In this document: positions 5,437 to 32,695 of the stretch, piece after piece
Layout: each line of letters starts with the position of its first letter
How positions within the stretch are numbered: position 1 is the stretch's first letter
Origin: Thermodesulfobacteriota bacterium
Lineage (GTDB): Bacteria; Desulfobacterota_D; UBA1144; Nemesobacterales; N074bin48
Length of the DNA stretch: 43,839 nt
Assembly (NCBI GenBank): GCA_041572575.1
Contig: JBFFSH010000016.1
Location: 1-43,839, forward strand
Direction of reading: 5' to 3'
The notes under the pieces: generated by a model
What the model was told of the DNA's origin: nothing
The model's input: only the letters and a program-made list of their open reading frames with translations
Database searches by the model: none
Made by a program: the position numbers and the translations under genes

Positions 5437-7832
5437 ATGAGGATAGGACTTCTACTAATTCTAATTGCTGCACTTGGTACCGCTGTATACATGTACAGGA
5501 CGGAGATACCATATCTTAATGATTTCTTTCCTAGCGAATCAAAATCCAAATTCCAATCTAAAAAAAAGCACAAAAAGAAACCTCATTCACCTACTCAAAG
5601 AAATACTTTCAACATCGATGAGAAAACGAAAGAAGAAATAAAGGCGTATTTCAAAGGGATAAAATTGAACCCCAAAAACAACTATATGAAATATGCCATG
5701 GACTTAGACAGTAAAAAAGGCAGAAAACAATTATCTCGGGGAAATTATAAAGGAGCATATAAAACTTATCAAGAAGTATTAGCCATTAGTTATAACAATA
5801 AAAACTTAAGAGGTATTGGTGTTTCTCTTGGCTATATTGCAAATATTCTTAATAAAGCAGGCGATAAAGAGAATGCTCTTAAAACATATTTACTGCAGCA
5901 TAAAATAACTGAAACTATGCATGCCCCCCATGATCTTGGTGTAGTGCAATTGAGTATATCTAGGATGCTAGCTTACAAAAATGAAAGTTTATCACTCATG
6001 TGGTTAATGAAAGCCCGAGATAATCTAAAAGGCACACATTATAAACGCGATACAGTCAGTGTTCTAGAAGAATTAGGATCCAAACATTATTATCAAGGAC
6101 ATAAGGAAAAGGCCGGCATATTTTATAAGGATGCATGGGATTTAGCACTTACTTTAGGAAAATCTAGATATGACAGATGGGCCAGATGGGAAGCTGGCAA
6201 ACTATATTCTATCTATCTCCAAAAAACAGATAATTATCAAAATTCACTAAACATTTTAGAACATATTACAAAAGAATTTCCAGTAGTTGAAATGCAGGGG
6301 GAAATGTACTCTGAAACATTATTTCTTATTTCTAAGTCATATTCAAAACTGAAATATACAGAGCAGGCCGATAATTCATATCATAAAGCTTATATAGCCT
6401 ATCAGCATGCTAGATCTAAATCATTGGGAGATGTAGGTAGAGCAAAATTGGATTCTAAATTTAATAATTATATAGACGAATACATAAATCATTTAATAAC
6501 AAACAACAAGTATATGCATGCTCTTGTAACTATCGAATCAAATAAAGCTCCTACTTTAAATGATATAATGGAAGATGTTTATCAAAAGGATGTTTATCAA
6601 AAGCTTTCCGATCTAAATACTAAACATCAACTAGAAATACAAGACTTTATTAAACAAAATTCACAAACATCAGAAATATCAGATGAAAATATATTAATCA
6701 AGTACTCTCAGATAACTCAAAAACAGCAACAGGAAAAAAAGGAACTTGAAATATCACTTAACATAAGAACTGTTCCAGTAAGCAGTTCACTTTCTGCTAA
6801 TGATATTCATTTAGCTCAAAATCATCTACCAGATGATACTGCAATTTTATCATTTTATATTAGCAAAGAACTTTCAGGATTATTTATTTTACTTAATAAT
6901 AGTAAAAAGTTTGTAAAATTAAATATTGATGAGAATTCACTCTATCTTCTTGCAAGTGAGTTAAGAGCTTCAATAATTAATCCTTATACAGACTATTACA
7001 AAGAATCTTCTGTAAAATTATATAGTGCTCTATTCGGTGAAGTACTAAAACATTTAAACAAGAACATAAAGAACCTTATTGTTGTATCTGATAATGTATT
7101 AAGCAGTATCCCCTTTAGCCCTCTTTATGACGGAAAATCATTTCTGATAGAAAATTATTCTATATACCGTGTCCCTTCTTTAAGGTTTATAAAGAGTTTT
7201 GCAATTTAAATAAAAAATCATTAGATAGTGGAATTGCTTGTGTTGATCCAGAAGTTCGAGGTGCACGTCTGCCATTCCAGGCTGAAACCGGTGATTATTT
7301 AAAAAATCTATATAATTCTAAGTTAAACCTGATAGCAGGCAAAAAATGTTCAATTTCTGGATTATCCGATGAAATAAGTTCAGTTAAAATCCCTTCTTTT
7401 CTGCACATTGGCGCACATGGGAGTTTCTACTCTGGAAAACCTATGGAATCTTCAATTTATTTATCAGTGTCTGAAAATTCTCAATCAGGAATTTGGACAG
7501 CACATGATATTGCAACCACCGATCTTGGCAATTTCCCGCTTGTAACTCTCAGCAGTTGTGAGACAGGACTATCAGACATAGATACTGAAAGAGATGTTTT
7601 TGGGTTTCATAGGGCATTGTTTTTTGCAGGTGCACAATCTATTTTATCTCCCCTATGGGCTGTCCATGACAAGGGCACCGCATTTTTAATGCAAAATTTT
7701 TATAAATCATATTCATCAGGTGATAATCCTGCAACTTCACTTAAAAAGGCACAATTATTATCAATCAAAAATAAAGAATACAATCACCCTTATTTCTGGT
7801 CAGGATATACAATTACGGGATTACTATTATGA
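5437..7832 (+). pseudogene. TPR + CHAT (caspase-like peptidase) protein split by a -1 frameshift near 7190
   Basis: ORF 5437-7209 has a TM anchor, TPR-like helices and the CHAT N-half (IPFSPL...PSL). The -1 frame is open 7131-7832 and encodes LPFQAE, HIGAHG, LSSCETG, LWAVHD and HPYFWSGY. Confidence 0.8.
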
Positions 7833-8713
7833 TCAAACGTTTTATATTAAATACAACCGTATTCCTTTTATTCTCCAACATTGCAATCTGTGACGAGATT
7901 GATCAACTGCTTCAAAAAGCACTTGATGCTAAATTTTCAGAAGTAGGTAATGATTCATCAGCAAGGCAAAGATATCTATTTGAAATACTGCAAAAAGAAC
8001 CCGACCATCTTGAAGCATTGTGGCAGGTAACACTAATCAAGCTAAATTCTATTCCAAGTAGCAGCTTGAGCAAAGAAGCCCCATATCTTGCTATGCTTGG
8101 GCCGGAAGTAAATAAGATATTGGATACTGCAATATCCAAAGGAAATAGAGCATTTTATCACTATATAAATGCTGTATATGCTTCAGCACATAAAGCATAT
8201 GATACTGCTCTGATTGAAATTGAAAAGTCGATAAACCTGGAACCTCAGTCTGCTCGCTATGTATTAAACAAAGGTAAAATACTTATAGATAAAGGTAGGT
8301 GGACATATAATGATGATAATATTGCGCAGGGACTTGATATGATAGAAGCAGCTCTTATTTTATCGAAACAAAATAAAAATCCTTTTCATTCACCATGGCA
8401 CTACAATTTTCAATTAGCTTTAGGAAACTCCTATTTTGAAAACCCGAAATGGCAGGAAGTTATATCTAATTACCAAATTAGTATAGATATTATGGAAAAA
8501 GTTAATGCTACACAAAAATCGAGCTATGCATATGCGTGAAGAAACATGAGCACTGCATACAGAAAAATTGGTGACTGCACAAATGCACTAAAATCAGCAG
8601 ACAAAGCATTAGAAGTAATGGATTTCAAAGCTGCTCAATATGCTAAAAGTACAGCAGAGCTTTGTATTGAAATGCAGAAGATGGTTTATAAGGATATAGT
8701 TAAATCAAAATAA
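7829..8713 (+). pseudogene. Exported TPR protein with in-frame TGA at 8537-8539 (294 aa if read through)
   Basis: After YAYA-TGA the frame continues RNMSTAYRKIGDCTNALKSADKALEV... to TAA at 8711-8713, completing a TPR helix pair. ATGA-coupled to the CHAT gene. Confidence 0.75.
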
Positions 8714-8729
8714 ATGTAGTAGTCGTACC

Positions 8730-9446
8730 CTAATTAAATTTTATAAATTCTTCCTCAATTTGGTTATAAAGCTCACCAAGCCAGATTGGATTACTTCCCT
8801 CAGGAACAACTAAATCTTGCTTTCTCGGATCAAATGGAGCTATAACCACTTTTACGTTTTGTTTACCTACATTCTCCACTAATACGAATAGCTCTTCAAT
8901 AGCATTATCTCCCATGGCAAGGCAGCCGACAGACAAAGCTTTACCGTGAATGAAAATATCAGAGCCCGGGTTTGTTCGGCCGTCCTTTTTAGCTTGTAAA
9001 AGATCAAAATCATTTGGGTAATTCAGTTTCAATGATAGGTGATATGAGCTGTTTGGATTCAGACCAATAATTCGGTAGATACCTTCGGGTACCTGATGAT
9101 CTCCTTCCCTCAGTTTCGGCCCTAATTTACCACTTGTCTTTTTTATATCATAGGTTCTTATATATTTAAAATCTGCTCCGTCTGATGCCCACAGCTCAAG
9201 TTCTTTATCATCCTTTGTTGCAAGCATTACTACTTGTTTAGGTGGATAGATAACACCTGCATTTTTGAAATAAGGTGCTAAACGTGCTACAGCCTGCTCG
9301 CCATATATTGAGATCACATCCGCAACCGTCCTTTGCCCCGCTAATGCACGATACTTAGGTACCCAAACACTTCTGCCGTAATAATATAATAGAAAGATTG
9401 CTGCAGGGAAAAGAACTAAAAGAAAAAAAAGGTACTTTTTAGGCAT
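8730..9446 (-). CDS. L,D-transpeptidase family protein (YkuD domain, YafK-like)
   Basis: GPKLREGDHQVPEGIY, YHLSLKLNYPN and IFIHGKALSVGC (His/Cys) motifs; N-terminal TM. Confidence 0.88.
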   Translation of the reverse strand: MPKKYLFFLLVLFPAAIFLLYYYGRSVWVPKYRALAGQRTVADVISIYGEQAVARLAPYFKNAGVIYPPKQVVMLATKDDKELELWASDGADFKYIRTYDIKKTSGKLGPKLREGDHQVPEGIYRIIGLNPNSSYHLSLKLNYPNDFDLLQAKKDGRTNPGSDIFIHGKALSVGCLAMGDNAIEELFVLVENVGKQNVKVVIAPFDPRKQDLVVPEGSNPIWLGELYNQIEEEFIKFN

Positions 9447-9475
9447 ATGAATCCTATTAATTACTTTACATCAAC

Positions 9476-9844
9476 TCAAGTATATCTATTTCTATAAATC
9501 GCATTAGAATATACCTGGATCCGGTTTTGTTCGGGATCTCGGAAATCGAAAACTATATTGCCGTCCTTATCAGGCTCAGGCAAGCGAACTCTGGGCTTAT
9601 ATGCTTTAACACGCTTTACTAATCCGTCTATGTCATCAGTATAGAGCATTAATTTTTGCCTGCCGCCGTTTGGTTTGGTGCCGCTGTGCAGGCACAGTTC
9701 AGCCCCTTTTTTTGAAACAAATTTAAAGAATTTATGTGCAGGAAACGGCTGAGTATCGAGCGGCGTAAGCCCGACAACATCACGATAAAATGCAGTCATG
9801 TTTTTAATGTCTTCACAAAAAATCATTATGCCTGTGATGTTCAT
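9476..9844 (-). CDS. VOC / glyoxalase family protein
   Basis: FYRDVVGL and FRDPEQNRIQV motifs; GAGGT SD. Confidence 0.85.
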   Translation of the reverse strand: MNITGIMIFCEDIKNMTAFYRDVVGLTPLDTQPFPAHKFFKFVSKKGAELCLHSGTKPNGGRQKLMLYTDDIDGLVKRVKAYKPRVRLPEPDKDGNIVFDFRDPEQNRIQVYSNAIYRNRYT

Positions 9845-10046
9845 GCTGACTACCTCATTTTCATATAGGTTTTATTATAATACAATTTGAAGTTAGATGC
9901 CGACTAAATACTAAAATTTCAGTTCATCTATAACTGCACCCAAATCTCCCCGCCTCAAATCCTTTTGCATTGAGATCGCTGTACTCTTTAAGTTCTCTAG
10001 GTTAGGACTTTGTATAAATGAGTGTAAGTGTTTTTGCATTTCTTTT

Positions 10047-10991
10047 TCAGAGTATAAAGTTTCTTAGCGTGACTATATTTGGTGTCTCTACAGATGTCTT
10101 GTTAATAAGAGTCTGGAATTCAACTGACAGCTCTCGCATCTCGTCCTGTGCAGCTCTGGCATGCAGTGAGAATGCTACTTCTGCAAACTTGCTTTCGAGA
10201 AGACCCTCAACTGCCTTCACATTCAGCATCTCGGGTAACCAGTAGAACAGGTTGAATTTAAAAGGGTAACGCTTTGTGTACCCAAGAGCTTTCAGGACCC
10301 TGCCACCTTCCTTGACAGCTTGTATCATCACCTTGATCGTTTTTTTATCTTTGGCAAGTGAATAGTTCTCACAATTGTGCTTATAGAGAGCATTACCCAA
10401 TGGACTTATCAATGCGACATGGCACTTCAACCACCCATCTATATCCCCGACCAGATCAACAGGAATTCCACTCATCTCAAAGAGAGACTTGATCTCAAGT
10501 GTTCTTCTTTTAGTTTTCCCGTCGATTTCCCCAATGGTGACTGGTCTTCTTTTATCCTTTGGCTTTTCTCGGTCGGCATAATGAACAACTTGCTCGCTTA
10601 TTCCACCACCCGCTCCAGGAAATCCTAATAGCAACTTCTCCTTAGGTAGGTACCGTAAGTAATCTACGAAGCCAAGCGAGTTGTTGCCCATAAACAGGAT
10701 ATTCTTGATGTTGGCATTTGTCCTAAGAACCTCAAACACAGGAAGAAGCTTATTTTTTCTTATTAATACGACCACCAGATCGTACTCATCGTCCTCCTTC
10801 AGTTCATTAACTACCCTAAGCTTCGAGGCCCCTCTATCCCCAGTGATTTCGTTTACCAACTCAATACCCTTGGTCTTAATGAACTCGTACCGTTTACCTC
10901 GAGCGAGAATAGTCACATCCTTTCCCGCTTGACAGATGAGATGGGCATAGAGGGAACCAATAGGACCTGCTCCGAAGATCAAAGTTTTCAT
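10047..10991 (-). CDS. Ketopantoate reductase family (ApbA/PanE-like) oxidoreductase
   Basis: IFGAGPIGS Rossmann motif, VTILARG, GFPGAGG. Confidence 0.82.
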   Translation of the reverse strand: MKTLIFGAGPIGSLYAHLICQAGKDVTILARGKRYEFIKTKGIELVNEITGDRGASKLRVVNELKEDDEYDLVVVLIRKNKLLPVFEVLRTNANIKNILFMGNNSLGFVDYLRYLPKEKLLLGFPGAGGGISEQVVHYADREKPKDKRRPVTIGEIDGKTKRRTLEIKSLFEMSGIPVDLVGDIDGWLKCHVALISPLGNALYKHNCENYSLAKDKKTIKVMIQAVKEGGRVLKALGYTKRYPFKFNLFYWLPEMLNVKAVEGLLESKFAEVAFSLHARAAQDEMRELSVEFQTLINKTSVETPNIVTLRNFIL

Positions 10992-11057
10992 AGGGTTGTC
11001 CCCTTATAGTTTAAATCTAACATTTATTTTTATGTTAATTTATTTATGGGATAAAAC

Positions 11058-11843
11058 TCATAAATGTATTTCAATCTCTCCAATCAAATAAAGAACCGCC
11101 TTTCCCGAAATACTGACACTGTATAATTTAAGTTCACAAAAAAGCTCCCCTCCTCTTTTAGATAACTGTTTTGCATGCAGTTTTTTCTTCTTTACTTTTT
11201 CTGACCAGTAAGGAGTTAGAGTACAATGTGCAGAGCCTGTGACGGGGTCTTCATCTATACCATATTTAGGAGCAAAGAAGCGGGAGACGAAATCACAGTC
11301 ATTTCCGGGTGTTGAAACAATTACTCCTCTTAGATCAATTTCCCTTAACAAATTTAAATCAGGGTTGATGTTTTCAATCTGCTCCTGATTCTCATAAATT
11401 AGCAGATAATCATCCGCTTCAAACACTTCCATTGGTTCTATATTAAAAGCAGAAACAACTTTTTCAGGTTTCTTAGAGATATTAGGGGGCAGTGAAGGAA
11501 AATTTAATGTTATTAAATCCGAATCTCTTGTGACATTCAGCTCACCACTGTTTGAATAGAACTTGATTTTCTCAACAGATTTATCAATTTCATTGAAAAT
11601 TACATATGCTGCGGCAAGAGTGGCATGGCCGCAAAGATCAACTTCTGTAGTTGGTGTAAACCATCTTATCCTGTAGCCATCATCCTCTCTTACAAAAAAG
11701 GCAGTCTCTGAAAGATTATTTTCAGCGGCTATGGACTGCATTAAAGAATCATCAATCCATTTATCTAAAGGACAGACCGCTGCCGGATTTCCACGAAATA
11801 ACTCAGAAGTAAAAGCATCTATCTGGTAAATAGCAATTTTCAT
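11058..11843 (-). CDS. PhzF family isomerase
   Basis: DAFT...GNPAAV, NLSETAF, EVDLCGHATLA and EDPVTGSAH motifs. Confidence 0.93.
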   Translation of the reverse strand: MKIAIYQIDAFTSELFRGNPAAVCPLDKWIDDSLMQSIAAENNLSETAFFVREDDGYRIRWFTPTTEVDLCGHATLAAAYVIFNEIDKSVEKIKFYSNSGELNVTRDSDLITLNFPSLPPNISKKPEKVVSAFNIEPMEVFEADDYLLIYENQEQIENINPDLNLLREIDLRGVIVSTPGNDCDFVSRFFAPKYGIDEDPVTGSAHCTLTPYWSEKVKKKKLHAKQLSKRGGELFCELKLYSVSISGKAVLYLIGEIEIHL

Positions 11844-11908
11844 ACAAGACCTATTATAACCTGCTAAAGAATATATAGCAGGTTATTTTCAGATCATGTA
11901 TTTATTGT

Positions 11909-12352
11909 TTAAACCTGTGAAGTGCAGTTTGGGCACTTTGTAGCTTTAATGGAAATCGTGCTTATGCAGTGGGGGCATTCCTTTGTGGTTGGTTCTTCTG
12001 GAGCTTCCTCTTCTTCCTGCATCTTGTTCATACCCTTCACTACCATAAAAATAGCAAAGGCTACAATAATAAAACTAACTATCGTGTTTATAAAAGCACC
12101 GTAATTTAAAGTAACGGCACCCGCTTCTTTAGCTGCGGCAAGAGATATATATGGACCTGCCGTGGTACCCTCTTTTAATACAGCATGCAAATTAGAAAAG
12201 TCTACATTGCCAAGCAGCATACCTACAGGCGGCATAATTACATCATTCACTAATGAATTGACTATAAGAGCAAATGCCCCTCCAATCACAATACCAACAG
12301 CCATATCGACTACATTGCCGCGCATGGCAAACTTTTTGAATTCATCAAGCAT
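11909..12352 (-). CDS. mscL: Large-conductance mechanosensitive channel with C-terminal CxxC-CxxC zinc ribbon
   Basis: [32 protein letters not shown]; tail CPHC...CPNC; GGAGG SD. Confidence 0.96.
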
Positions 12353-12378
12353 AAATCATCATCCTCCTATATTAATTT

Positions 12379-12687
12379 CTAAGATAGTCTTTTCGGATTT
12401 AAAAAATTATTAATAAGCACCAAAAGATAATTAATAACAACCGCCCAAAGAATACTGTTAAAAATATAAGGTATATACTTCATATAACCTTCGAATCTGA
12501 TGCCTGTGATATTTAGAAAAGTGCTGGTTGGGATAAAAAGATAGTCTCTAAAAAACCGCAGACATGAGTCAATAAAGCCCCCATCAGAGATTATGAGTTC
12601 TGAAGAAGTAAGGGGTGATGTTGATAATATCAACACTGAAAGTGCATAATGAATAAAAAAAACAATTACTACATTATCCAGTCTCAT
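12379..12687 (-). CDS. Small membrane protein (NSILW motif)
   Basis: 102 aa with 2-3 hydrophobic segments, filling the gap between nrdJ and mscL. Confidence 0.6.
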   Translation of the reverse strand: MRLDNVVIVFFIHYALSVLILSTSPLTSSELIISDGGFIDSCLRFFRDYLFIPTSTFLNITGIRFEGYMKYIPYIFNSILWAVVINYLLVLINNFLNPKRLS

Positions 12688-12710
12688 CTATTGAGCCTAA
12701 GCATAATGCT

Positions 12711-15164: not shown

Positions 15165-15204
15165 TAAATCCCCCTTTTAATTAGCTCATGCTTAATAAAT
15201 TATT

Positions 15205-15252
15205 TTATGCTATGTTGTACTCTGAATACGATTCAAACACAATATGTTGTGG
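15205..15252. promoter_or_regulatory. Tandem NrdR-box candidates upstream of nrdJ
   Basis: ACACAATATGTTGTGG (15237-15252) matches acaCwAtATaTwGtgt. A degenerate copy TTATGCTATGTTGTAC (15205-15220) is offset by 32 bp. Confidence 0.75.
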
Positions 15253-16644: not shown

Positions 16645-17175
16645 ATGTTTAATGTTGATGATTTTGTTAATTGGGCCTATGGCAATCTTCTGAATAACAC
16701 AACTAGAGCAGTTGTAGGAGAATATTTAGTTCACAAAGCACTGGATTCCTCTACAAAACAGAGAATTGATTGGGATGCATATGATATTTTATATAAAGAT
16801 TATAAAATTGAAGTAAAAACTTCAGGTTATTTACAAACATGGAATCAACAAGGCAATTATAGTAAAATTAAGTTTGATATAAGCAAAAAAGATCCCTGAC
16901 TTCCAGAACATAATAAATACTTAGGTAAAGCATGCAGATATTCTGATATATGGATATTTTGTGTACACACCGAAAAAAATATTAATAAGGCACATTCTCT
17001 TGATGAAACCCAATGGGAGTTTTATTGTTCTACAACAAAATGGATTGATGAAGTATTCGGTGAACAAAAAAGTGTTGCATTAGCAAGTTTGTTGAAAAAA
17101 GGATTACAACCAGTACTTTTCAACGAACTAAAATACTATATAGGTTATTTAATAAAACATGAACTAAAAAATTGA
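16645..17175 (+). pseudogene. PD-(D/E)XK nuclease-like protein with in-frame TGA at 16897-16899 (176 aa if read through)
   Basis: GEYLV...WDAYDI...IEVKTSGYLQTW. After KKDP-TGA, 91 more sense codons follow (RYSDIWIFCV...QWEFY...QKSVAL). Confidence 0.7.
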
Positions 17176-21922: not shown

Positions 21923-21942
21923 GTTTAGACTAAATTAAAACT

Positions 21943-22422: not shown

Positions 22423-22433
22423 AGGAGAATGAT

Positions 22434-22811: not shown

Positions 22812-22834
22812 TCCCGCATAAATCTAAATTATAT

Positions 22835-23773: not shown

Positions 23774-23852
23774 GATATCTAATTCCTAAATTTCTTTTAA
23801 CCTCTATTATATTCGTGTTATATTCAATTGATACATCACATTGTGATAAGGA

Positions 23853-24446
23853 ATGATTCTGATGAAAAGCTTACTTACTTCACTACTAATTTTATTCGTC
23901 ACAGTTGTATGTATAAACAGTGCAGAATCTAAAGAACTAAAATATAAAAACACAACTTTTACAACCACAGTCGGCAATGTAAGACTCCAGGCAGAACTTG
24001 CAGACCAGGGAAAAGAAAATAGTGATAAGGTATCTGTAACTGTTCCTGCCGTAATTTTTGATAAACCGATTGTTATTGAAGACGTAAGAAAAGTTACAAA
24101 GAGCCAAGGTAAGGAAATTGATTTTCTAGTTGCCTACCATAAGGCTAATATTGAAGGAGACAAGGAAAAAATATTATCCTTTTGGCACCCTGCAGAAAAA
24201 GAAGAAGTCAGCAAAGATGTAAATGACCCTGAACTACTTAAGCATACGAAAGAATATATGACCAAGAATCCTGGCATGACCATTCATGGAATCATAAAGC
24301 AAAAGAGCAGCATATCAGTGATTACAGGAACGGATTTTGTTTTTGGTATCAGCATAAGACCAAAAGACGGAAAGCTGTTTTTAACAAATAAGCCGGACAA
24401 TGACCTGGAGCTTGCTATTATTGAAGGATCGTTTATGAAGTTTTAG
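23853..24446 (+). CDS. Hypothetical exported protein
   Basis: Signal peptide; 197 aa ORF. Confidence 0.7.
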   Translation: MILMKSLLTSLLILFVTVVCINSAESKELKYKNTTFTTTVGNVRLQAELADQGKENSDKVSVTVPAVIFDKPIVIEDVRKVTKSQGKEIDFLVAYHKANIEGDKEKILSFWHPAEKEEVSKDVNDPELLKHTKEYMTKNPGMTIHGIIKQKSSISVITGTDFVFGISIRPKDGKLFLTNKPDNDLELAIIEGSFMKF

Positions 24447-24626
24447 CATTCAGTAAATTTCCAAAAATTCAAATCATCCTAATTTCCTACAATTCAGAAT
24501 AGCCATCTCTATTCACTACTGCCAGTCTGGTACACCTTCGAAAATCGATATATTATCATATCAATTAATTTGATCTTGTGATAATTACTAATCGTTAAGT
24601 CATACACACAGCTTAATATATAGACC

Positions 24627-25349
24627 ATGCCAAAACTAGATGAATTAGTTAGAAAAATTAATTTCAGATATGTGGGATTTGTTTTTTTTCTTACAATAAG
24701 CCTGTTATCAGGAAAACGTTTATTTAGTGAGATTTATACGGGGGGTAAAAGAGCGCTTACATATGAACCTGTGGAAATGACTATTCACAGATCAGGCGTT
24801 GTTAGAAAGAGGCATAAAGGGATTGAGTATCTTGGAGGCGGTTATGATGAAGTGTTTTATCCAAAGATTACATATTCATATAGTGTAAATGGAGTTCTGT
24901 ACTGGGGTGGTAGTGATATTTACTATGACACTTTTTCTCACAGGGAGGGATTTAGCCATGGTAAGGCATGGGATATTGCAAGAAAATATAAACCTGAGTC
25001 CGTTGTGAGCGGATATTATAATCCCAAAGATCCTGAAGAATCATTTCTTGAAGTAAGATCATCATCATTCATGGGAATGGCTATATTATTTTTTACATTC
25101 CCTCTAACTATTGCGATCATTATTATAAGAAACGAGCCTGATTCTGATGAAGTACACAAAAAGGAACTGTTTATGTACAGCATACCCCCGCTTGCTCTAT
25201 TTTTTATTTACCAGGTTTACCATCTTTCACTAGGTGGAGAGATGGACGGCATATACTGGTTAACGTGGTTATTTATGCTACTGCCCGCATATATATTATA
25301 CTGCGCCCTTAAGCCATCTGATGATAATGTGGAACAGCTTGGATCATGA
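24627..25349 (+). CDS. DUF3592-like membrane protein
   Basis: TM, YPKITYSYSVNG...YYNPKDPEESFL, then further TMs. Confidence 0.7.
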   Translation: MPKLDELVRKINFRYVGFVFFLTISLLSGKRLFSEIYTGGKRALTYEPVEMTIHRSGVVRKRHKGIEYLGGGYDEVFYPKITYSYSVNGVLYWGGSDIYYDTFSHREGFSHGKAWDIARKYKPESVVSGYYNPKDPEESFLEVRSSSFMGMAILFFTFPLTIAIIIIRNEPDSDEVHKKELFMYSIPPLALFFIYQVYHLSLGGEMDGIYWLTWLFMLLPAYILYCALKPSDDNVEQLGS

Positions 25350-25454
25350 TTAGCTTATCTGCTTACATAACGCCCTTCATCCTTGATTTGGCTGTGAGTT
25401 ATTATATATTTTATAAATAAGTCTTATCGAATAGAGCATAATTTGAAAATCGGA

Positions 25455-26363
25455 ATGAATAACAAATACAGAGTAACCATACTAACCTGCTTCATAGTAT
25501 TTTTAAGCCTTATCATTTTTGGTTTACCGACTAACTCATTTGCAGGTGCTAAAGCATGTTCAGGTGATAACATGTGTGCTAAGGGTGAGATATGTGGCTA
25601 CGGACAATGTATTCCAGGTTGCAGAGTAAGTACAGAGTGCAGACCTGGACAGTATTGTATAAATAATGAATGTACAGATGTAATATGCAAACCTGGATCA
25701 TCACGCCAGTGTTATGAAGCTGGAGATGAAACCAAATCTGTAGGTATGTGTAATTCAGGAATACAATTCTGTCTGGAAGATGGAAAGAGTTATTCATTAT
25801 GTACAGGCCAGGTTTTACCACAAATCGAAATATGTGACATGCAGGATAATGACTGTGATGGACAAATCGATAACGGTGTTGATTGTGAGTGTAAGCCGGG
25901 ATCAAAAAGAACATGTTATAACGGACAACAAGGGACGCTTGATGTCGGTGAATGCAAGGCTGGCATACAGTACTGTGAAATGGATAACTCTTGGGGTAAG
26001 TGCCTTGAAGTAGTAAATCCAAGCAATGAAATATGTGATGGAAAAGACAATGACTGTAACGGCATAATAGACGACAACGATAAATGCGAATGTCCTCCGG
26101 CAGCAATTAGATGGTGCTACACTCATGACCCCACTACAGCAGATGTTGGCGAGTGCCGTGAGGGAAGACAGGTTTGTAAGGCAGACTACACATGGGCTTC
26201 GGTCTGTTTAGGAGAAATAGGTCCCGTAAAAGAAATTATGGCCGATGGTAAAGACAATGACTGCGACGGAAAGGTTGATAATGTATTTGCAGACCCCAAT
26301 GAAATGATTCTTGATAAACCAGTAGTTATTGAGCCCGAACCTCCGCTGGAAATTATTGAGTAG
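25455..26363 (+). CDS. Exported Cys-rich repeat protein with putative metal-binding (MopE-like) DxxDNDCDGxxD motifs
   Basis: Signal peptide; three ~67 aa repeats ending EICDMQDNDCDGQID, EICDGKDNDCNGIID and EIMADGKDNDCDGKVD. Confidence 0.85.
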   Translation: MNNKYRVTILTCFIVFLSLIIFGLPTNSFAGAKACSGDNMCAKGEICGYGQCIPGCRVSTECRPGQYCINNECTDVICKPGSSRQCYEAGDETKSVGMCNSGIQFCLEDGKSYSLCTGQVLPQIEICDMQDNDCDGQIDNGVDCECKPGSKRTCYNGQQGTLDVGECKAGIQYCEMDNSWGKCLEVVNPSNEICDGKDNDCNGIIDDNDKCECPPAAIRWCYTHDPTTADVGECREGRQVCKADYTWASVCLGEIGPVKEIMADGKDNDCDGKVDNVFADPNEMILDKPVVIEPEPPLEIIE

Positions 26364-26447
26364 TAAGGATTTTCAATTTCATAATTCTTCCTATCAACAA
26401 TTCTAACTTTGCAACATAAGTTTAATTTTATATGTTAAGCTACCTGT

Positions 26448-26729
26448 ATGAAAAAATGCCCTTTTTGTGCCGAATATATCCAGGATGATGCTATTAAGTG
26501 CCGCTTTTGCAATGAGCTAATTGACAAAACTCCCAAGCCTAAAACAAAGTGGTACCATACTAACACCGGAGTAATTTTTGCCCTGCTTGCCATAGGCCCA
26601 TTTGCCCTGCCACTTGTATGAATCAATCCCGAATATAAAACACACATCAAAATCCTTCTTACAATACTTATCCTGGGTGGGAGCTTATGGTTTTATTTTG
26701 CTACTAAGGATATTTATGAATTGTTGTGA
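26448..26729 (+). pseudogene. Zinc-ribbon membrane protein with in-frame TGA at 26619-26621 (not in the ORF track)
   Basis: MKKCPFCAEYIQDDAIKCRFCNE...KWY...IGPFALPLV-TGA-INPEYKTHIKILLTILILGGSLWFYF... Confidence 0.78.
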
Positions 26730-26790
26730 AATAAATAATTATGTCATTATTTCGTAAATAACCTGTAGGAGTTTCTGCATAACCTGGAAA

Positions 26791-27120
26791 ATGAAAAGGG
26801 TCCTGATAATTATTGGTTTATCGGCAGTTCACTTCCTAATAACTATGGGCTTTGGTATATTAAATTTTTCTGCAGGTATATCCAATTTTGATAATATAGA
26901 CAAAGCCCCCTCAGCAAGTAATGCGATTACAAACTCTATTTCTAATGTTCTGGAATTCCCTTTATTGTTACTGTTCCGGACTTTAGAGCTATCATCGTTC
27001 GGAGAGTTCTTGCCAAAGTTTATCTTCATTGCAATTGCAAATAGTATTCTTTGGGGCACTGCGATATATATAATTTATAAATATGTTATCAAGAAACCAG
27101 AAAAGACCCGGCAGACGTGA
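26791..27120 (+). CDS. Small membrane protein (NSILW motif)
   Basis: 109 aa, 3 hydrophobic segments. Confidence 0.7.
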   Translation: MKRVLIIIGLSAVHFLITMGFGILNFSAGISNFDNIDKAPSASNAITNSISNVLEFPLLLLFRTLELSSFGEFLPKFIFIAIANSILWGTAIYIIYKYVIKKPEKTRQT

Positions 27121-27280
27121 CCTGCATTTCTTGAATAGGGACGGGATGGTCGCATGCAACCCTCGTGACCACGAAGCTGCGCATAGAGCTGAGGTTGAGG
27201 GGATTGCTACTGAGAATAAAGAAGCTTTGACATGCAAGAAGTGTCTAGTTGAAATTAGAAGGGAACTTGTAACTAAATAA
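27083..27280 (+). CDS. Small His/Cys hypothetical protein
   Basis: LHFL...VAC...TCKKC; overlaps the previous gene by 38 nt; start uncertain. Confidence 0.5.
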   Translation: MLSRNQKRPGRRDLHFLNRDGMVACNPRDHEAAHRAEVEGIATENKEALTCKKCLVEIRRELVTK

Positions 27281-27394
27281 TTGAACAGTATTTCATTTTA
27301 AATACTATAATGTATGCTTACTGATATGCCCCCATTCTTATTAGTATTGGCAAAAATCATTTCAAGACAAATCAATATTAACTAGGAGCTCAAT

Positions 27395-28219
27395 TTGAGT
27401 ATATTTGCTATTATCTTCACAGCATTATCTTTTTTGTTTGGATTGATTTTTCTTATAGATTGCATCAGATATAGAAAACAAATTAATGAATTTGTGAAAT
27501 ATGGAATTTGCCTAGGGCTTATTTTAGTATCAATTGATATAGCAATATATTATTTAATATCAAACTATTTATCTGATATTCACATTGTTATATTAGTATT
27601 ATCTGAATTTCTAAGTTTAGTACAAATAACAATCTTTACATGTATGGGAATGTATATTTGTAAACAGCTAAATTTCAAGGACATTCCCTTTGTAAGAAGT
27701 TTTTTTGAAAAATCATATAACATTAATAGAAACTATATATTTCAAAAACGTTTCCTTGTTTATGTGTTTTCAGTAATTTATCTTTCTGTAGCTTATTCAA
27801 TAATTTTATTTAGTCTGACTTCACCTGAGATGTCACAAACATTAAAGCATATGTCAGAATCACAGTTAGAAGAATTACCCAACTTAAACAAACCCTCTTT
27901 TCTAGCAGCTCTTGTAGTATTAGAGTTTGCATTTGCAGAGGAGATAATATTTAGACTTGGTATTCAGAACTACATTCAAAAAATGTTAAATTTAATAGAT
28001 TCACAATATTGGATATCTATTAGCTTAACATCTCTTTTTTGGTCATTTGCTCACGCAAACGTGCTTGATCCTGAATGGGTAAAAATTGTTCAAATATTCC
28101 CGATAGGTCTGGGCCTTGGATATTTATTTAATAAATTCGGAACTGAAGCATGCATACTAGCACATGGTTTTTTCAATATAATAATGATGTTTCTAACTCC
28201 TTATTTATTTACAATTTGA
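27395..28219 (+). CDS. CPBP (CAAX/Abi) family intramembrane glutamic protease
   Basis: AEEIIFR, FWSFAH and AHGFFN motifs; multiple TMs; AGGAG SD. Confidence 0.88.
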   Translation: MSIFAIIFTALSFLFGLIFLIDCIRYRKQINEFVKYGICLGLILVSIDIAIYYLISNYLSDIHIVILVLSEFLSLVQITIFTCMGMYICKQLNFKDIPFVRSFFEKSYNINRNYIFQKRFLVYVFSVIYLSVAYSIILFSLTSPEMSQTLKHMSESQLEELPNLNKPSFLAALVVLEFAFAEEIIFRLGIQNYIQKMLNLIDSQYWISISLTSLFWSFAHANVLDPEWVKIVQIFPIGLGLGYLFNKFGTEACILAHGFFNIIMMFLTPYLFTI

Positions 28220-28274
28220 ACGTATTGTTGATTAATTTTGGAAATAATATAGAAGAATTTAAAAGATATTTCTC

Positions 28275-29030
28275 ATGAAATACATCTATAAATCACTTGA
28301 TTTTTCACAACGAAATTTGGGATTGCTTGGTATATTTATACTTATAAATATCTTTCCTGCCCCTCTGAGCTTACTTTATAATAATGGTGAAGAATCAAAT
28401 ATATCAAATATGTTCTTAATCATATTAATTATAGTATCTCTACTATTATTTATATTAAATATTTTTTTGATATCAGGAACTTATTCTTTGATCTGGAAAA
28501 AATTTAAGGATAAACACATAAGTTATTCATCATTAATATCTGAATCCAAAAAATATTTTTCTAATAATATTGGTATTGGTCTTGCGATAGGTTTCACTGG
28601 ATTTATAGTGGCATTATTTATTATTGTTATAGTTGGAGTATTTAGTAAAGACATAGATAATAGACCGGACTACACGGATTTCTCTATTATAGTACCTTTA
28701 TATTTTTATCTGCTGCTCACAATATTTTGTTATGCAATTCCTTATCTTTATGTAAAAGAAATGAATTATAAAAATGCATTTTTCAATTCTCCAAAGATAC
28801 TTATTAATCATATTAAGCAATCTTTTCCAATAATTTTACTTCTTTTTATAAATCTAGTCATATCTTTTTCGACATCATATGACCAATCTTATTATTTCTC
28901 TGATATCATCATAGAAATAATAATCTATTACATAAGTTTTAATATTTTTATAATCACATGTCAGATATTGGATGAAATAGATATCTCGGATTTTGAAAAT
29001 GGCTCAACACAAAACAGGAAAATCATTTAA
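28275..29030 (+). CDS. Hypothetical multi-pass membrane protein
   Basis: 5-6 hydrophobic segments; very AT-rich. Confidence 0.7.
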   Translation: MKYIYKSLDFSQRNLGLLGIFILINIFPAPLSLLYNNGEESNISNMFLIILIIVSLLLFILNIFLISGTYSLIWKKFKDKHISYSSLISESKKYFSNNIGIGLAIGFTGFIVALFIIVIVGVFSKDIDNRPDYTDFSIIVPLYFYLLLTIFCYAIPYLYVKEMNYKNAFFNSPKILINHIKQSFPIILLLFINLVISFSTSYDQSYYFSDIIIEIIIYYISFNIFIITCQILDEIDISDFENGSTQNRKII

Positions 29031-29667
29031 TCAGGTTCAGGGTGTCAGAGCCAATAGATACAGTGGCTCGAAGCTTACAAACTGGATGGATTTTAATCCA
29101 GCCGGGAGTTCCTTATATAAAATTTATTCTGATCATTACAATGAGTTCATAAACAATAAAAACAAGATTTCGTATTTTAAACAAAAAACACATCCTGATT
29201 TCATAATGCCTCTAAAAATTTCAGGAATTAAAAAATATCTCCAGAATGTACCAGAGAAATATTACAAGGATATAAAAGCTATATTTTTATTATCAGGTTC
29301 AAACAAGCAGGAAAAAGTATTTTTCAGTAAACTATTTTGCTATGGCACTTACATGGCAAACTGTATCTTTATCCATCCCTATCCAAAAAACAATATGAAT
29401 CTGATATTTAAAAACCCCCCAAAACCAAACATTCTTAATGACTATAGGAGAGTCGGAGCGCTGATAGAAAAAGACGACACAAAGGGAACTATTTTAAAAT
29501 GGACAAAAGAATCACTTAAAGATTTCTATTATAGGGATGTACTGATGCATGAGATCGGGCACCACTATGATAAATATGTCTGGGTTAAATCAAACAAAAA
29601 AGCAGAAGGATTTGCAGAGTGGTTTGCTACAGAATATGGATTTAAGTTTAAGCATTTGAAAGATTAG
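28999..29667 (+). CDS. HExxH zinc-metallopeptidase-like protein
   Basis: LMHEIGHHYD followed by AEGFAEWFA. Confidence 0.7.
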   Translation: MAQHKTGKSFNQVQGVRANRYSGSKLTNWMDFNPAGSSLYKIYSDHYNEFINNKNKISYFKQKTHPDFIMPLKISGIKKYLQNVPEKYYKDIKAIFLLSGSNKQEKVFFSKLFCYGTYMANCIFIHPYPKNNMNLIFKNPPKPNILNDYRRVGALIEKDDTKGTILKWTKESLKDFYYRDVLMHEIGHHYDKYVWVKSNKKAEGFAEWFATEYGFKFKHLKD

Positions 29668-29686
29668 TCTGTTAAAAATATTTTTT

Positions 29687-30433
29687 ATGTACAAATCCCT
29701 TATCACCAAACTCACAAACCAAATAAACCAACACTCCAACCCTGCTGAAAAATCCTGGTTTGAAAACTATATAAAAAACAGCGCTCCGTTTAGAGGCGTT
29801 AAGATGCCAGTAGTTAGAAAAGAACTTCATAAATGGCATAAGGATTACATTGATGGCGAAATGGATTTAGACCAGCAGCTTGATTTAGCATTTGCTCTTA
29901 TAGAAGAAAAATATACCGAGGACAAAATTGCCGGGACTATGTTCATGCAGGAAATTTTGATTCCAAAAGGAATCATGAAGCCAAAAAGAAATATTAAAAG
30001 ACTTTCAGAACTTTTCAGCAATGGACACATCTATGACTGGAATGTGTGCGACTGGTTTTGTATGAAGGTGCTGGGTGAGCTAATCGTGAAAGATGAGAAA
30101 TACTGGGCAAGACCAATTCATATGTGGCACAGTGCTGAGAACCTCTGGCAGGCCCGCGCGTCCTTAGTTTCATTTGAAAGGGTTTCCGATAATCAGGATT
30201 ACTTCAGCATGATTGAAAAATCCTGTAAGAAGCTAATCAAAAGAGAAGAACGTTTCGCAAAGACTGCTGTTGGCTGGCTTCTTAGAGAAATATCAAAGCA
30301 GGATGAAGATTTTGTAAAGCAGTTCATCGAACATCACATAAAACATTTTACAGCTGAGACAATCAGAAATGCACTAAAATATTCATCGAAAGATGAGAAG
30401 AAACATTATTTAACCTTGCTGAAATCTGTTTAA
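29687..30433 (+). CDS. DNA alkylation repair protein (AlkD-like)
   Basis: FRGVKMP, DWNVCDW, NLWQARA, KTAVGWLLRE. Confidence 0.85.
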   Translation: MYKSLITKLTNQINQHSNPAEKSWFENYIKNSAPFRGVKMPVVRKELHKWHKDYIDGEMDLDQQLDLAFALIEEKYTEDKIAGTMFMQEILIPKGIMKPKRNIKRLSELFSNGHIYDWNVCDWFCMKVLGELIVKDEKYWARPIHMWHSAENLWQARASLVSFERVSDNQDYFSMIEKSCKKLIKREERFAKTAVGWLLREISKQDEDFVKQFIEHHIKHFTAETIRNALKYSSKDEKKHYLTLLKSV

Positions 30434-30447
30434 TATTCCAACCCTAT

Positions 30448-30759
30448 TCATGCCTCAGTATCCAAAAACACATCAAAAGTCTCCAGATGACTCTCGGTTG
30501 AAAAAGCCTCTTTTGGCAGTGTGCCGCTTTTTGCATGACCTTTAATAAAAGCATCAGATTTTACCCAGTTATTAAAATCATCCTCGGATTCCCAGAAAGT
30601 CATCACCACATATGGCTGCTCAGGCCCCTTGGGTTTCAAGACCACATTGCGAACAAACCCTTTCATCTTATCCACTTCATGTGCCCGGTTTTTAAACCTC
30701 TGCTCAAATCCATCGGTATATCCTTCATTCACAAAAATTCTGTTCATGGTTACAAACAT
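30448..30759 (-). CDS. Antibiotic biosynthesis monooxygenase family, IsdG/HmoA-like heme-degrading type
   Basis: MFVTMNR, KGF, WESEDDFNNWVKSDAFIKGH, with Asn/Trp/His at IsdG-like positions; AGGAGA SD. Confidence 0.85.
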   Translation of the reverse strand: MFVTMNRIFVNEGYTDGFEQRFKNRAHEVDKMKGFVRNVVLKPKGPEQPYVVMTFWESEDDFNNWVKSDAFIKGHAKSGTLPKEAFSTESHLETFDVFLDTEA

Positions 30760-30863
30760 TTTTTTCTCCTTTTTGTACCCTTACATAAAATCAAAGAATC
30801 TACATATTAATTAAACTATCTAAAATAATTGGATATACTATTATATAAATAAGGGTATTCATT

Positions 30864-30962
30864 ATGTTTGGAATAAACTTAAAAGTAATTTTAACATCAA
30901 TATCAATATATATGGGTATTTATGCCGGAAGTTTGATTGCTGAATTTATTATTTACGGCTAG
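30864..30962 (+). CDS. Putative 32 aa single-TM small protein (not in the ORF track)
   Basis: MFGINLKVILTSISIYMGIYAGSLIAEFIIYG; AAGGG upstream. Confidence 0.4.
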   Translation: MFGINLKVILTSISIYMGIYAGSLIAEFIIYG

Positions 30963-31072
30963 AAATTTCTTCTTCCATAATGTTTTCATAACGTTTATTC
31001 CCTCTTCTCCATATAATATACAATCAGCTTTGTAAGCTTTTCTAAACTATTTATAGTAAACTATCAATTACT

Positions 31073-31432
31073 ATGAAAAAGTGGTTAGTAGCACCTTTAA
31101 TAATATTCATACTGATACTAGCCCCCAACTTGATGTGGCTTAACTGGTCTACTTTATTTATAAAAAACACGAGCAGCAAACAGGTAAATAATATAACCGT
31201 AGAAATATGTTCTGAGACATTCCAGGTTGCTTCTAAACCCCATAGCTCCTCTCTGCGTCTCCTTCCAAAATGCGGTGATGCCACGCTCATTCTAAAAGCA
31301 AATGCCAAACTTGTGTGTCAATATTATGTGGAAGGCGAACTGTATAATGTAGAAGCAGACGTTGGCAGTGGTAAGTGTAAAACCGACCTTCCCATTATTT
31401 CATCCCTATTTTTATTAAAATTGATTAAATGA
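31073..31432 (+). CDS. Hypothetical membrane-anchored protein
   Basis: N-terminal TM, four Cys; ATGA-coupled to the next gene. Confidence 0.65.
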   Translation: MKKWLVAPLIIFILILAPNLMWLNWSTLFIKNTSSKQVNNITVEICSETFQVASKPHSSSLRLLPKCGDATLILKANAKLVCQYYVEGELYNVEADVGSGKCKTDLPIISSLFLLKLIK

Positions 31433-31728
31433 AAAAATATGCACTAAATGGATTGTTTGCAGGAATAATATTATTAACTATTGCAGTATTTGTAGTGATT
31501 TATATAGAATGGGGAAAATTTGACGGCAGATGCATCAAAATGGGCTTTCCGTTCCTTGCAGAGGCACAGGAATACGACTGTACGTTTACTGAGTACATAA
31601 AAGATGATTCCAGAAGCATCTTTTGGCTATGGCCATATGATCCAAGGCTATGGGTAGCAATCATATCAATATTGGTAATTCCGGTTGTAGCTGGAAGTAT
31701 TTTAGGATTTAGGAAAAAATCGACATAG
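31429..31728 (+). CDS. Hypothetical two-TM protein
   Basis: TM-loop (2 Cys)-TM. Confidence 0.65.
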   Translation: MKKYALNGLFAGIILLTIAVFVVIYIEWGKFDGRCIKMGFPFLAEAQEYDCTFTEYIKDDSRSIFWLWPYDPRLWVAIISILVIPVVAGSILGFRKKST

Positions 31729-31771
31729 AAAATTGATATATATCAGTTGATTTATATGTTATTATTTGTTT

Positions 31772-32005
31772 ATGCCTATCTCTAAAGAACAACTATTCAA
31801 AGAGGCTATGGATTTAGATGATAATGCTCGGGCAAACCTTGCAGGACTTCTTATTGAGAGCCTGGATACCGAAGCTGAAAATGGCATTGAGAATGCGTGG
31901 TTAAAAGAGATTGAACAACGAATGGAATCTCTCGATTCTGGAAAAACGGAAACTGTTTCTTGGGATACTGTCAAAGAAAGATTGTACAATAATGTGAATG
32001 GCTGA
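31772..32005 (+). CDS. Putative addiction module antitoxin (TIGR02574-like)
   Basis: RANLAGLLIESLD...AWLKEIEQR...VSWD; overlaps the toxin gene. Confidence 0.88.
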   Translation: MPISKEQLFKEAMDLDDNARANLAGLLIESLDTEAENGIENAWLKEIEQRMESLDSGKTETVSWDTVKERLYNNVNG

Positions 32006-32294
32006 TTACGAGGTCAGGTTTCATCCAGAAGCAATTAAAGAAGCTGAATCATCTCAGCATTGGTATGTAGAAAGAAGTCAAACAGCAGCACTTGGATTTA
32101 CTAATGAAATTTCTTCAGCTATTGAAAAAATATTAAAGTCTCCTACTCGCTGGCCAAAATATCAAAAAAATACTCGCAGATATATACTTCCGAGGTTTCC
32201 CTTTAGTGTAATTTATCGCATTAAGGATAATATAATCGAAGTAATAGCCATTGCACATCATAAAAGAAAACCGGGGTTTTGGAGAAATAGATAA
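31998..32294 (+). CDS. RelE/ParE family type II toxin
   Basis: FHPEA...WY...PTRWP...RFPFSVIY...IAIAHHKRKPGFW. Confidence 0.9.
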   Translation: MADYEVRFHPEAIKEAESSQHWYVERSQTAALGFTNEISSAIEKILKSPTRWPKYQKNTRRYILPRFPFSVIYRIKDNIIEVIAIAHHKRKPGFWRNR

Positions 32295-32335
32295 ATATAT
32301 TTAACCTTTTTAAAATCAAACCAAAATTAATAACA

Positions 32336-32695
32336 ATGAATAGAGAAGAATACAACGAAGAAGATTTTCTAAGACAGTATATTTTTAATTATTACCCGCA
32401 TTTATTTACAAAAGTAGAAGAACTTAGTTTTAAAAGAATATTAGCAAATGAAAAAGCTATCCATTCTAGCCCGAAGATGGCAAATATATTAAAAAAGAGT
32501 TGGGGCTCTGAAAACAATCCCAAAGTAGATGATGCATTAAGGGAGGGTATTGAAAAATTTAAACAAGCCGTATTTGCTAGATTAATGCAAGAACACAAAG
32601 ACGAAATTTTTATCAATCGCTGTCCTGAATGTAATAAAATAGTAAGGACACCAAAAGCTAAGCAACGTCCTTGATGCTTTCATGATTGGCATTAG
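32336..32695 (+). pseudogene. Hypothetical protein with C-terminal zinc ribbon, in-frame TGA at 32672-32674
   Basis: INRCPECNKIVRTPKAKQRP-TGA-CFHDWH-TAG. The second knuckle would read Q(C)P(W)C; CGT may derive from TGT. Confidence 0.7.

Follow-up and report, generated by a model that had tools for sequence, protein, structure and literature searches.

Four unrelated genes in a 43,839-nucleotide stretch of DNA (the window, meaning the whole stretch that was analysed) are each interrupted by a single in-frame TGA, and this raises the question of whether their host has begun to read UGA as tryptophan. The bacterium in question comes from sediment and marine settings, and its genome is a 137-contig draft, 96% complete; proteins sharing its 90% clusters are labelled Candidatus Dadabacteria by NCBI. 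UGA-to-Trp reassignment has reportedly been the subject of an earlier Codetta screen. To catch a free-living bacterium that still has RF2 at an early stage of stop-codon reassignment would be rare and valuable, and our evidence indicates that this is not such a case. The host reads the standard genetic code, and the four TGAs are TGG-to-TGA nonsense mutations at conserved Trp codons, most likely ordinary loss-of-function alleles still segregating in a near-clonal population.

The interrupted genes and the residues at their stops

All four in-frame TGAs described in the sequence-only reading were recovered (Table 1), and the frames continue past them for 57, 91, 35 and 6 codons, as it had described. 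It had noted that none of its four internal stops is TAA or TAG. A junction scan, which required 25 or more open codons and coding potential to both sides of the stop, found no gene of the window interrupted by either codon, giving only the rplM/rpsI boundary and two weak minus-strand matches. Two further lesions that it had suspected are real. In the CHAT gene, whose stop overlaps the start of gene 1 (ATGA), model positions 3-65 and 162-288 fall in two ORFs and reading continues in another phase; in gene 4, residue 111 has changed from Cys to Arg. The strand switch near 15.2-15.5 kb was considered as a replication origin and rejected, since DnaA-box-like words occurred at chance level, with none in the spacer.

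Table 1. Features of the window discussed in the text (the asterisk marks the interrupting stop)
Feature	Position	Strand	Remarks
CHAT-domain gene	5437..7832	+	adjoins gene 1 upstream; frameshifted near 7190-7210; CHAT model split over two ORFs
Gene 1, TPR-repeat protein	7829..8713	+	N-terminal hydrophobic leader; 294 codons with read-through; TPR_12 spans the stop
TGA, gene 1 codon 237	8537..8539	+	followed by A; YAYA*RNMSTAY; TPR motif position 4
Gene 2, uncharacterised family	16645..17175	+	~176 aa; D...E-V-K motif; 29% GC; own terminator TGA
TGA, gene 2 codon 85	16897..16899	+	followed by C; KKDP*LPE
Gene 3, zinc-ribbon protein	26448..26729	+	93 aa; two predicted membrane helices; terminator TGA
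TGA, gene 3 codon 58	26619..26621	+	followed by A; GPFALPLV*INP
Gene 4, zinc-ribbon tail	32336..32695	+	119 aa; C-terminal CPxC...CxWC zinc ribbon
Second lesion, gene 4	32666..32668	+	CGT (Arg111) replacing Cys, third zinc ligand; Cys in homologues and one allele
TGA, gene 4 codon 113	32672..32674	+	followed by T; QRP*CFHDWH

The assignment of the four positions to Trp in the sequence-only reading is borne out by alignment. The stop column holds W in 4/4 full-length conspecific alleles of gene 1, in 11/11 of the gene 2 homologues that cover it (12 were aligned), in 29/29 aligned homologues of gene 3, and in 5/5 sequences for gene 4, namely three of three full-length alleles and two of two distant homologues. 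In gene 1, residues 234-262 match positions 1-29 of the TPR_2 model, though below the curated cut-off. Gene 2 gave no Pfam match in profile scans and its product is putatively PD-(D/E)xK-nuclease-like. The extension of gene 4 past its TGA, at six codons, carries no weight from its size alone. The site in gene 4 is supported because the full-length 119-aa alleles and the homologues have C-x-W-C there. Among 40 relatives, we found one weak match to gene 1, two matches to gene 2 and one full-length ortholog of gene 3, which lacks the stop.

In other samples, three of the window's four genes also exist as intact alleles, as do six further broken genes of the genome. For gene 1, the 294-aa full-length protein is recorded on 19 contigs and the 236-aa truncated one on 102. 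Residue 228 is K in all W alleles and T in all truncated alleles, and the two forms therefore represent separate haplotypes. Gene 3 has its 93-aa W form on 25 contigs and, on 50, a truncated protein of 57 aa. Its W allele stops at the gene's own TGA terminator, indicating a table-11 call and therefore TGG at codon 58. Gene 4 is found as a 119-aa protein on 66 contigs and as a 112-aa protein on 48. Indirect arguments suggest TGG at codon 237 in the W alleles of gene 1 and at codon 113 in those of gene 4. For gene 2, the stop is carried on 136 contigs and no intact conspecific allele was seen; the sole conspecific protein with 'W' is a code-4 gene call. Public protein collections hold such code-4 calls on short contigs, which give rise to artefactual 'Trp read-through' proteins. 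The 'W' versions of a methyltransferase and a CDGSH gene, found only on ~1-kb contigs, probably stem from code-4 calling as well and were therefore not counted as Trp.

The stops themselves are not confined to one assembly. Reads showing TGG had been named as evidence that would speak against a special role of UGA; the contigs of runs X1, X16, X18 and X20, from four studies and at a depth of 9-31, match the window and carry TGA at 8537, 16897 and 26619. They all differ from it at position 20046. Assemblies in NCBI, ENA and Logan record the truncated proteins of the four genes on 48-136 contigs. The population is nearly clonal (0-1 differences in each aligned contig piece), which is too little variation for dN/dS downstream of the stops.

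UGA in the decoding apparatus and as a terminator

The sequence-only reading had pointed to prfB and tRNA-Trp as places where altered decoding might be visible, and both turned out to be of standard type. The prfB product scores 522.8 bits in a profile search (cut-off 370). It has a ...GDYL-TGA +1 frameshift site of the CTT-TGA-C type, and the SPF and GGQ motifs. A prfA gene is also present, and RF2 is neither lost nor disabled. The single tRNA-Trp has a CCA anticodon and five Watson-Crick pairs in its anticodon stem. No tRNA with a UCA anticodon was found in the 96%-complete genome down to 90% ARAGORN thresholds, and the anticodon is absent among 43 Rfam tRNAs and one partial tRNA-Arg (which reads TCT). 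No match to the tRNA-Sec model RF01852 passes the threshold of 47 bits, the best reaching 45.4. Selenocysteine recoding does not fit, with no tRNA-Sec above threshold and homologues having Trp, not Cys, at the sites. Nor does a conserved programmed read-through, in which relatives and alleles would keep the stop; the homologues and sister alleles have Trp.

TGA is in regular use as a terminator. It ends 414 of 2288 long ORFs (18%), and 10 of the 43 ORFs of the window have a genuine terminal TGA. Extensions past terminal TGA are not longer than those past TAA or TAG, and back-up stops show no excess in the 5 or 10 codons that follow it. ORFs cover 85.3% under code 11, 86.4% when TGA is taken as sense (a gain of 1.1 points) and 86.0% when TAG is. 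Under code 4, TGA would be frequent at Trp columns inside genes and unused as a terminator; neither is the case here.

Premature stops across the genome

The TGA-only pattern, from which partial decoding or reassignment of UGA had been argued, does not hold for the genome as a whole. A Pfam census reduced 272 candidate junctions to 17 domain-interrupting stops, comprising 8 TAA, 4 TAG and 5 TGA, so that 12 of 17 are TAA or TAG. All three codons occur in mutation-like proportions, and the split fits a neutral nonsense spectrum (chi-square p 0.41-0.83 against three mutation models). The census covers domain-bearing genes and would catch one of the window's four sites. On coding potential alone, the junction candidates numbered 395-694; most of them were gene boundaries or shadow frames, and the set was too noisy for counting stops without homology.

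Ancestral residues were assigned for six of the nine TGA and TAG sites of the census. Intact conspecific alleles identify G>TGA in a peptidase M20, Q>TAG in an ADH and Y>TAG in an MmeI-like methylase; among the TAA sites they identify E>TAA in a GAF protein and an SBP, and S>TAA in an AsnB-like protein. The TGA in IS3 orfA likely replaces Arg, judging from a second copy, and the TGA in a HisKA H-box presumably replaces Gly, going by the family consensus. At the TAG site of a sigma factor, four of four aligned PDB chains have Phe, which is not one step from TAG, so that Tyr, Leu or Trp is still possible there. PDB alignments show no conservation of the column that holds the TGA of the methyltransferase.

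Four TGAs out of four would arise by chance with p about 0.003-0.004 for a set fixed in advance, and four TGG>TGA changes with p 2e-7 to 7e-5 under simple mutation models, values that are not valid test probabilities because the window was picked for the pattern. The density and uniform type of the cluster are nevertheless unusual, since four of four events within one 24-kb stretch are TGG>TGA, against only 2-9% of nonsense events in simple mutation models. Six nonsense alleles were characterised outside the window, and neither TGG>TGA nor TGG>TAG is among them. The cluster is a residual curiosity. It also carries a practical caution, namely that one window can show a TGA-only pattern although premature stops across its genome involve all three codons.

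Competing explanations and known systems

Because the host uses the standard code and carries TAA- and TAG-broken genes elsewhere in its genome, the four TGAs are likely ordinary segregating loss-of-function mutations. The relatives and conspecific alleles have a sense codon at the sites (for gene 2, in other species only). With 57 of 294, 91 of 176, 35 of 93 and 6 of 119 residues missing in genes 1 to 4, truncation would be expected to cause loss of function. Each truncated product would be non-functional or nearly so, and the genes would be dispensable; all four appear accessory, with a second lesion in the gene or its operon partner for two of the four. Any Trp inserted at these UGAs would reflect basal leakiness only, as known in bacteria generally. 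A different account of the same alleles is that the ordinary tRNA-Trp (CCA) misreads UGA at a low basal rate and inserts the native residue, with no special machinery; we regard it as unlikely, though worth weighing. Equally unlikely is its corollary that TGG>TGA alleles are privileged in this lineage as knock-downs and pile up in weakly selected genes. As knock-downs rather than knock-outs, they would more easily escape purifying selection and therefore accumulate, and the four-site cluster would be the visible trace of this, and possibly a starting material for UGA reassignment. The location of all four sites in conserved Trp columns, a TGG>TGA share far above expectation and an A after the TGA at two of four sites agree with this account, and Trp insertion at TGA occurs at low frequency in E. 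coli and Salmonella, with 6% read-through in B. subtilis (cited in PMC7918605, in the part drawn on here). However, TGG>TGA alleles are not commoner than others: the broken form makes up 42-100% of contigs for the four genes and 87-99% for the six other genes. The Pfam census, which is less biased, has TGG>TGA as one of 17 events (two if the methyltransferase site was Trp), and this is within expectation. In addition, gene 4 has already lost a zinc ligand, the operon partner of gene 1 is frameshifted, and the terminal TGAs lack an excess of back-up stops within five codons.

The remaining explanations are far less probable. A local, strand-coordinated burst of G>A changes, for example by minus-strand cytosine deamination, might have converted four TGG codons, as each of the four is a plus-strand G>A change and they lie within 24 kb. 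We consider this very improbable, for in genes 3 and 4 the stop codon is the only difference between intact and broken alleles, those of gene 1 differ at 1-4 further residues by other mutation types, and many other G>A differences would be expected if a burst had been dense enough to reach four of some 80 TGG codons. Moreover, a longest contig of 35,779 is recorded both for gene 1 in a truncated allele and for gene 4 in a full-length one; these probably lie on one contig, and the stops are apparently not all linked. Incipient or partial reassignment towards code 4 through altered translation machinery accounts only for the window's four Trp-column TGAs, and three of the features that define it already speak against it. 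RF2 is intact and its autoregulatory frameshift site depends on UGA, the standard tRNA-Trp and the lack of a UCA tRNA speak against it, as do terminal TGA usage and the lack of a gain in cover under code 4, elsewhere in-frame TGAs stand for Gly and likely Arg, and in relatives and sister alleles the codon is TGG or the gene is free of the stop. It is thus extremely improbable. An artefact of sequencing or assembly in this metagenome-assembled genome might be suspected from the fragmented draft and the mismatch at 20046, but the independent contigs agree at three sites and the truncated proteins recur across assemblies, leaving it a negligible chance. The samples together depict a near-clonal, widely sampled Dadabacteria-like lineage with many nonsense alleles at high frequency; a literature search on Dadabacteria with stop codon found nothing relevant.

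Among known systems, code 4 can be reached by one route via a tRNA-Trp(CCA) whose anticodon stem has 4 bp, as outlined in the part of PMC13092985 considered here. The window resembles code 4 in having TGA at conserved Trp columns. Unlike the code described in that part, the host has an autoregulated RF2 and a tRNA-Trp with the canonical 5-bp stem and CCA, uses TGA as a common terminator, and has few in-frame TGAs, some of which replace Gly or Arg. Basal UGA leakiness and the 'pseudo-pseudogenes' of Salmonella proteogenomics (PMC9122581) are similar, in that near-cognate reading of UGA at Trp would restore the native protein, and the A-after-UGA context cited there is present at two of our four sites. 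In contrast, the window genes are known from sequence alone, and the Salmonella read-through in the portion of that study used here is mostly at UAG, not UGA. The in-frame stops in prokaryotic genes of Belinky et al. 2021 (PMC7918605), as far as that account was drawn on, are single-base sense-to-stop changes in non-essential genes, as here. Like nonsense pseudogenes and loss-of-function alleles that segregate in bacterial populations, the broken genes of our host use all three stop codons, coexist with intact alleles and show further lesions in the gene or operon; unlike them, the window's four events are all one codon change, TGG>TGA.

Four broken genes and the residue lost at each stop

Four genes of the window are each interrupted by a single in-frame TGA, at exactly the positions that the sequence-only reading had given. 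The base directly after the TGA is A, C, A and T in genes 1, 2, 3 and 4, respectively. It had also held all four positions to be Trp, and this was borne out in every gene by homologues, conspecific alleles or both. In gene 1, a TPR_12 match (Pfam) spans the stop. A TPR_2 match, which lies below the Pfam cut-off, has its model position 1 at residue 234 and places the stop at TPR position 4, presumably the Trp of the TPR consensus; all four full-length conspecific alleles have W in this column. W is likewise found in each of the 11 gene 2 homologues that cover the column (12 were aligned) and in 29 of 29 aligned homologues of gene 3, which were taken from 575 matches. For gene 4, it is present in three of three full-length alleles and in both distant homologues, inside a C-x-W-C zinc knuckle.

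The window is ordinary chromosome, encoding ribonucleotide reductase, aroA, cmk, rpsA, sppA, lipA, rplM-rpsI and mnmG. TGA ends 12 of its 43 ORFs of at least 100 codons, and 10 of these 12 are genuine terminators (next stop 0-14 codons on). A CHAT-domain gene upstream of gene 1 is frameshifted. Its 3' part and the start of the TGA-broken TPR gene share the bases ATGA, and the two genes thus seem to form a CHAT-TPR unit that is decaying together. An islet of 23-30% GC, compared to 37% for the genome, separates the ribonucleotide reductase gene from aroA. It holds two ORFs without Pfam matches and gene 2 (29% GC); these features suggest acquired DNA. Further downstream, two ORFs of 251 and 224 aa without Pfam matches (29% GC) share 38 bases in different frames and may represent either two genes or a single frameshifted one.

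Features discussed in the text. Plain coordinates refer to the window, those beginning with G000 to contig and position in the source genome; allele counts are contigs carrying each form, by exact protein look-ups.
Feature	Coordinates	Strand	In-frame stop or other break	Truncated form (contigs)	Full-length form (contigs)
Gene 1, TPR protein	7829-8713	+	TGA at 8537, then 57 open codons to TAA	102	19
Gene 2, 176-codon protein with D...E-V-K motif	16645-17175	+	TGA at 16897, then 91 codons; own terminator TGA	136	2, short contigs only
Gene 3, 93-codon zinc-ribbon membrane protein	26448-26729	+	TGA at 26619, then 35 codons; terminator TGA	50	25
Gene 4, 119-codon protein with C-terminal zinc ribbon	32336-32695	+	TGA at 32672, then 6 codons to TAG	48	66
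CHAT-domain gene	5437-7832		frameshift near 7190-7210
Low-GC islet	15250-17200
251- and 224-aa ORF pair	28275-29667
prfB (L001, L142)	G000:C4:5497-6600		TGA after short leader frame
CDGSH iron-sulfur gene (L083)	G000:C44:1077		TGA
Serine recombinase and MmeI-like methylase (L069)	G000:C32:16726 and 18959		TGA and TAG
Phage portal gene (L075)	G000:C36:21176-22433		TAA; TAG junction adjoins

Broken and intact alleles in a widespread lineage

The stretch 26000-33000 recurs almost letter for letter in public metagenomes of sediment, marine, estuary and soil origin, comprising 20 runs and 11 studies, and near-identical DNA extends across 8000-33000 in the same number of runs and studies. We compared window positions 8000-27000, which cover the stops of genes 1-3, with contigs of four runs, each from a different study. 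At 8537, 16897 and 26619 these contigs had a depth of 9-31 and no difference from the window was listed. The TGAs thus recur in the contigs of four studies, and therefore these three stops are no artefact of this assembly. The truncated 112-aa product of gene 4 is recorded from NCBI, ENA and Logan assemblies. Across the 19 kb, the contig pieces from the four studies contained 0-1 other letters each; at position 20046, the contigs of all four runs have C where the window has A. The source lineage is strikingly clonal and widely sampled. Proteins of the same 90% clusters and a 78%-identical homologue of gene 3 are labelled Candidatus Dadabacteria at NCBI.

The full-length protein of gene 2 (public entry P0138) was rejected as a W allele. 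It shows W at the internal TGA and also at the gene's terminal TGA and is therefore a gene call under code 4, in which UGA is Trp, and no allele. Such calls on contigs of about 1 kb sit in public protein collections (P0138, P0152, P0156-P0158 and P0162) and concern gene 2, G000:C95:2262 and the CDGSH gene at G000:C44:1077. They mimic alleles with Trp read-through and may mislead allele counts, so care is needed with the W forms of genes 1, 3 and 4. The W allele of gene 3 terminates at the gene's own TGA; therefore, it is a call under the standard table 11 and its codon 58 must be TGG. In gene 1, the W and truncated alleles are distinct haplotypes, because residue 228 is K in all W alleles and T in every truncated one. 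The figure for the largest contig is 35,779 both for the W allele of gene 4 and for a truncated allele of gene 1, which suggests that both lie on one table-11 contig and that the stops are incompletely linked. Gene 4 forms an allelic series in public assemblies (window 32666-32674): 2 contigs carry Cys111/Trp113, 64 carry Arg111/Trp113 and 48 carry Arg111/stop. The loss of the zinc ligand therefore preceded the stop.

Premature stops across the genome

We searched the genome for junctions, defined as in-frame stops that are flanked on either side by 25 or more open codons and by sequence whose coding score is the best among the six frames. Of 395 junctions, the 272 without a start codon within the first two codons past the stop were compared with Pfam, the stop being written as X. 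The best domain match crossed the stop in 17: eight TAA (SBP_bac_3, P_proprotein, GAF, PAS, adh_short_C2, SNase, ParE, DUF5677), four TAG (Asp_protease_2, Sigma70_r2, ADH_N, MmeI/N6 methylase) and five TGA (HisKA, Peptidase_M20, Methyltransf_11, IS3 HTH_Tnp_1 and the window's TPR gene). Probable cases outside this strict set are an AsnB-like and a phage portal gene (TAA each) as well as a serine recombinase, a CDGSH protein and a Glyphos_transf-IspD pair (TGA each). The 8:4:5 split fits the nonsense spectra expected from the genome's codon usage (TAA 38-45%, TAG 30-39%, TGA 23-25%; chi-square p 0.41-0.83), and the TGA-only pattern noted in the window does not hold genome-wide. The census is limited to Pfam-covered genes and, of the four sites in the window, would have detected one; broken genes may therefore be several times more numerous than the 17 counted.

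Intact conspecific alleles, obtained by cluster look-ups, revealed Gly>TGA in the Peptidase_M20 gene, Gln>TAG in the alcohol dehydrogenase gene, Tyr>TAG in the MmeI-like methylase gene (intact allele 1043 aa), Glu>TAA in the genes for the GAF and solute-binding proteins, and Ser>TAA in the gene resembling AsnB. The HisKA stop falls at what we take to be the Gly position of the H-box, and in IS3 orfA the corresponding residue of a second copy is Arg. Premature stops are therefore of all three kinds, and because the residues lost include Gly and probably Arg, in-frame TGA is not tied to Trp.

The TGA of the CDGSH gene is located within a 16-codon segment flanked by repeated KIEK, and another allele (195 aa, 4 contigs) is devoid of this segment, an indel polymorphism by which the stop is gained or lost. 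The large serine recombinase and the MmeI-like methylase, 2.2 kb apart, are probably a decaying mobile element, and the lambda-family portal gene belongs to a prophage remnant with several stops.

The TGG>TGA cluster and the reading of UGA

TGG>TGA is expected to make up 2-9% of nonsense events, and it accounts for none of the six characterised nonsense alleles outside the window. Four of four in 24 kb would give p <= 7e-5 for a pre-chosen set, but this is no valid p-value because the window was selected for the pattern from a very large scan. A strand-coordinated burst of G>A mutations in the region is unlikely, as in genes 3 and 4 the stop is the only difference between intact and broken alleles. 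The most interesting reading that survives, and an improbable one, gives TGG>TGA alleles a milder effect than other nonsense alleles, in that basal misreading of UGA by tRNA-Trp would restore the native residue. Such leakiness has been described in E. coli, Salmonella and B. subtilis (PMC7918605, PMC9122581). However, the frequency of the four alleles does not exceed that of other nonsense alleles, independent decay is visible in two of the four genes, and back-up stops just past terminal TGAs are not enriched among the genome's ORFs.

The genome (2.6 Mb, 137 contigs, 96% complete) contains prfA and an intact prfB (522.8 bits) with the SPF and GGQ motifs kept. A short leader frame of prfB ends in ...GDYL-TGA and the RF2 body follows in the +1 frame, presumably the autoregulatory programmed frameshift site, which works only if RF2 reads UGA. 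TGA terminates 414 of 2288 long non-overlapping ORFs, and in these read-through extensions are not longer after TGA than after TAA or TAG. Treating TGA as sense raised ORF cover from 85.3% to 86.4%, compared to 86.0% when TAG was treated in this way. ARAGORN found no tRNA with a UCA anticodon in the 96%-complete genome at thresholds down to 90%; an Rfam scan returned the same 43 tRNAs and one partial gene reading TCT, and no tRNA-Sec above threshold was detected in the genome. Nothing suggests a different reading of UGA in this organism. The sequence-only reading was thus correct in observing TGAs at Trp positions and over-reached in interpreting them as possible UGA read-through or incipient reassignment.

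A full-text literature search pairing Dadabacteria with stop codon returned nothing relevant to that pairing. Accessory genes broken by nonsense mutations are already known, as are their polymorphism and basal UGA leakiness. The single tRNA-Trp gene carries the anticodon CCA and five Watson-Crick pairs in the anticodon stem; therefore, it differs from the tRNA-Trp with a 4-bp anticodon stem described in PMC13092985 as the type reading UGA.
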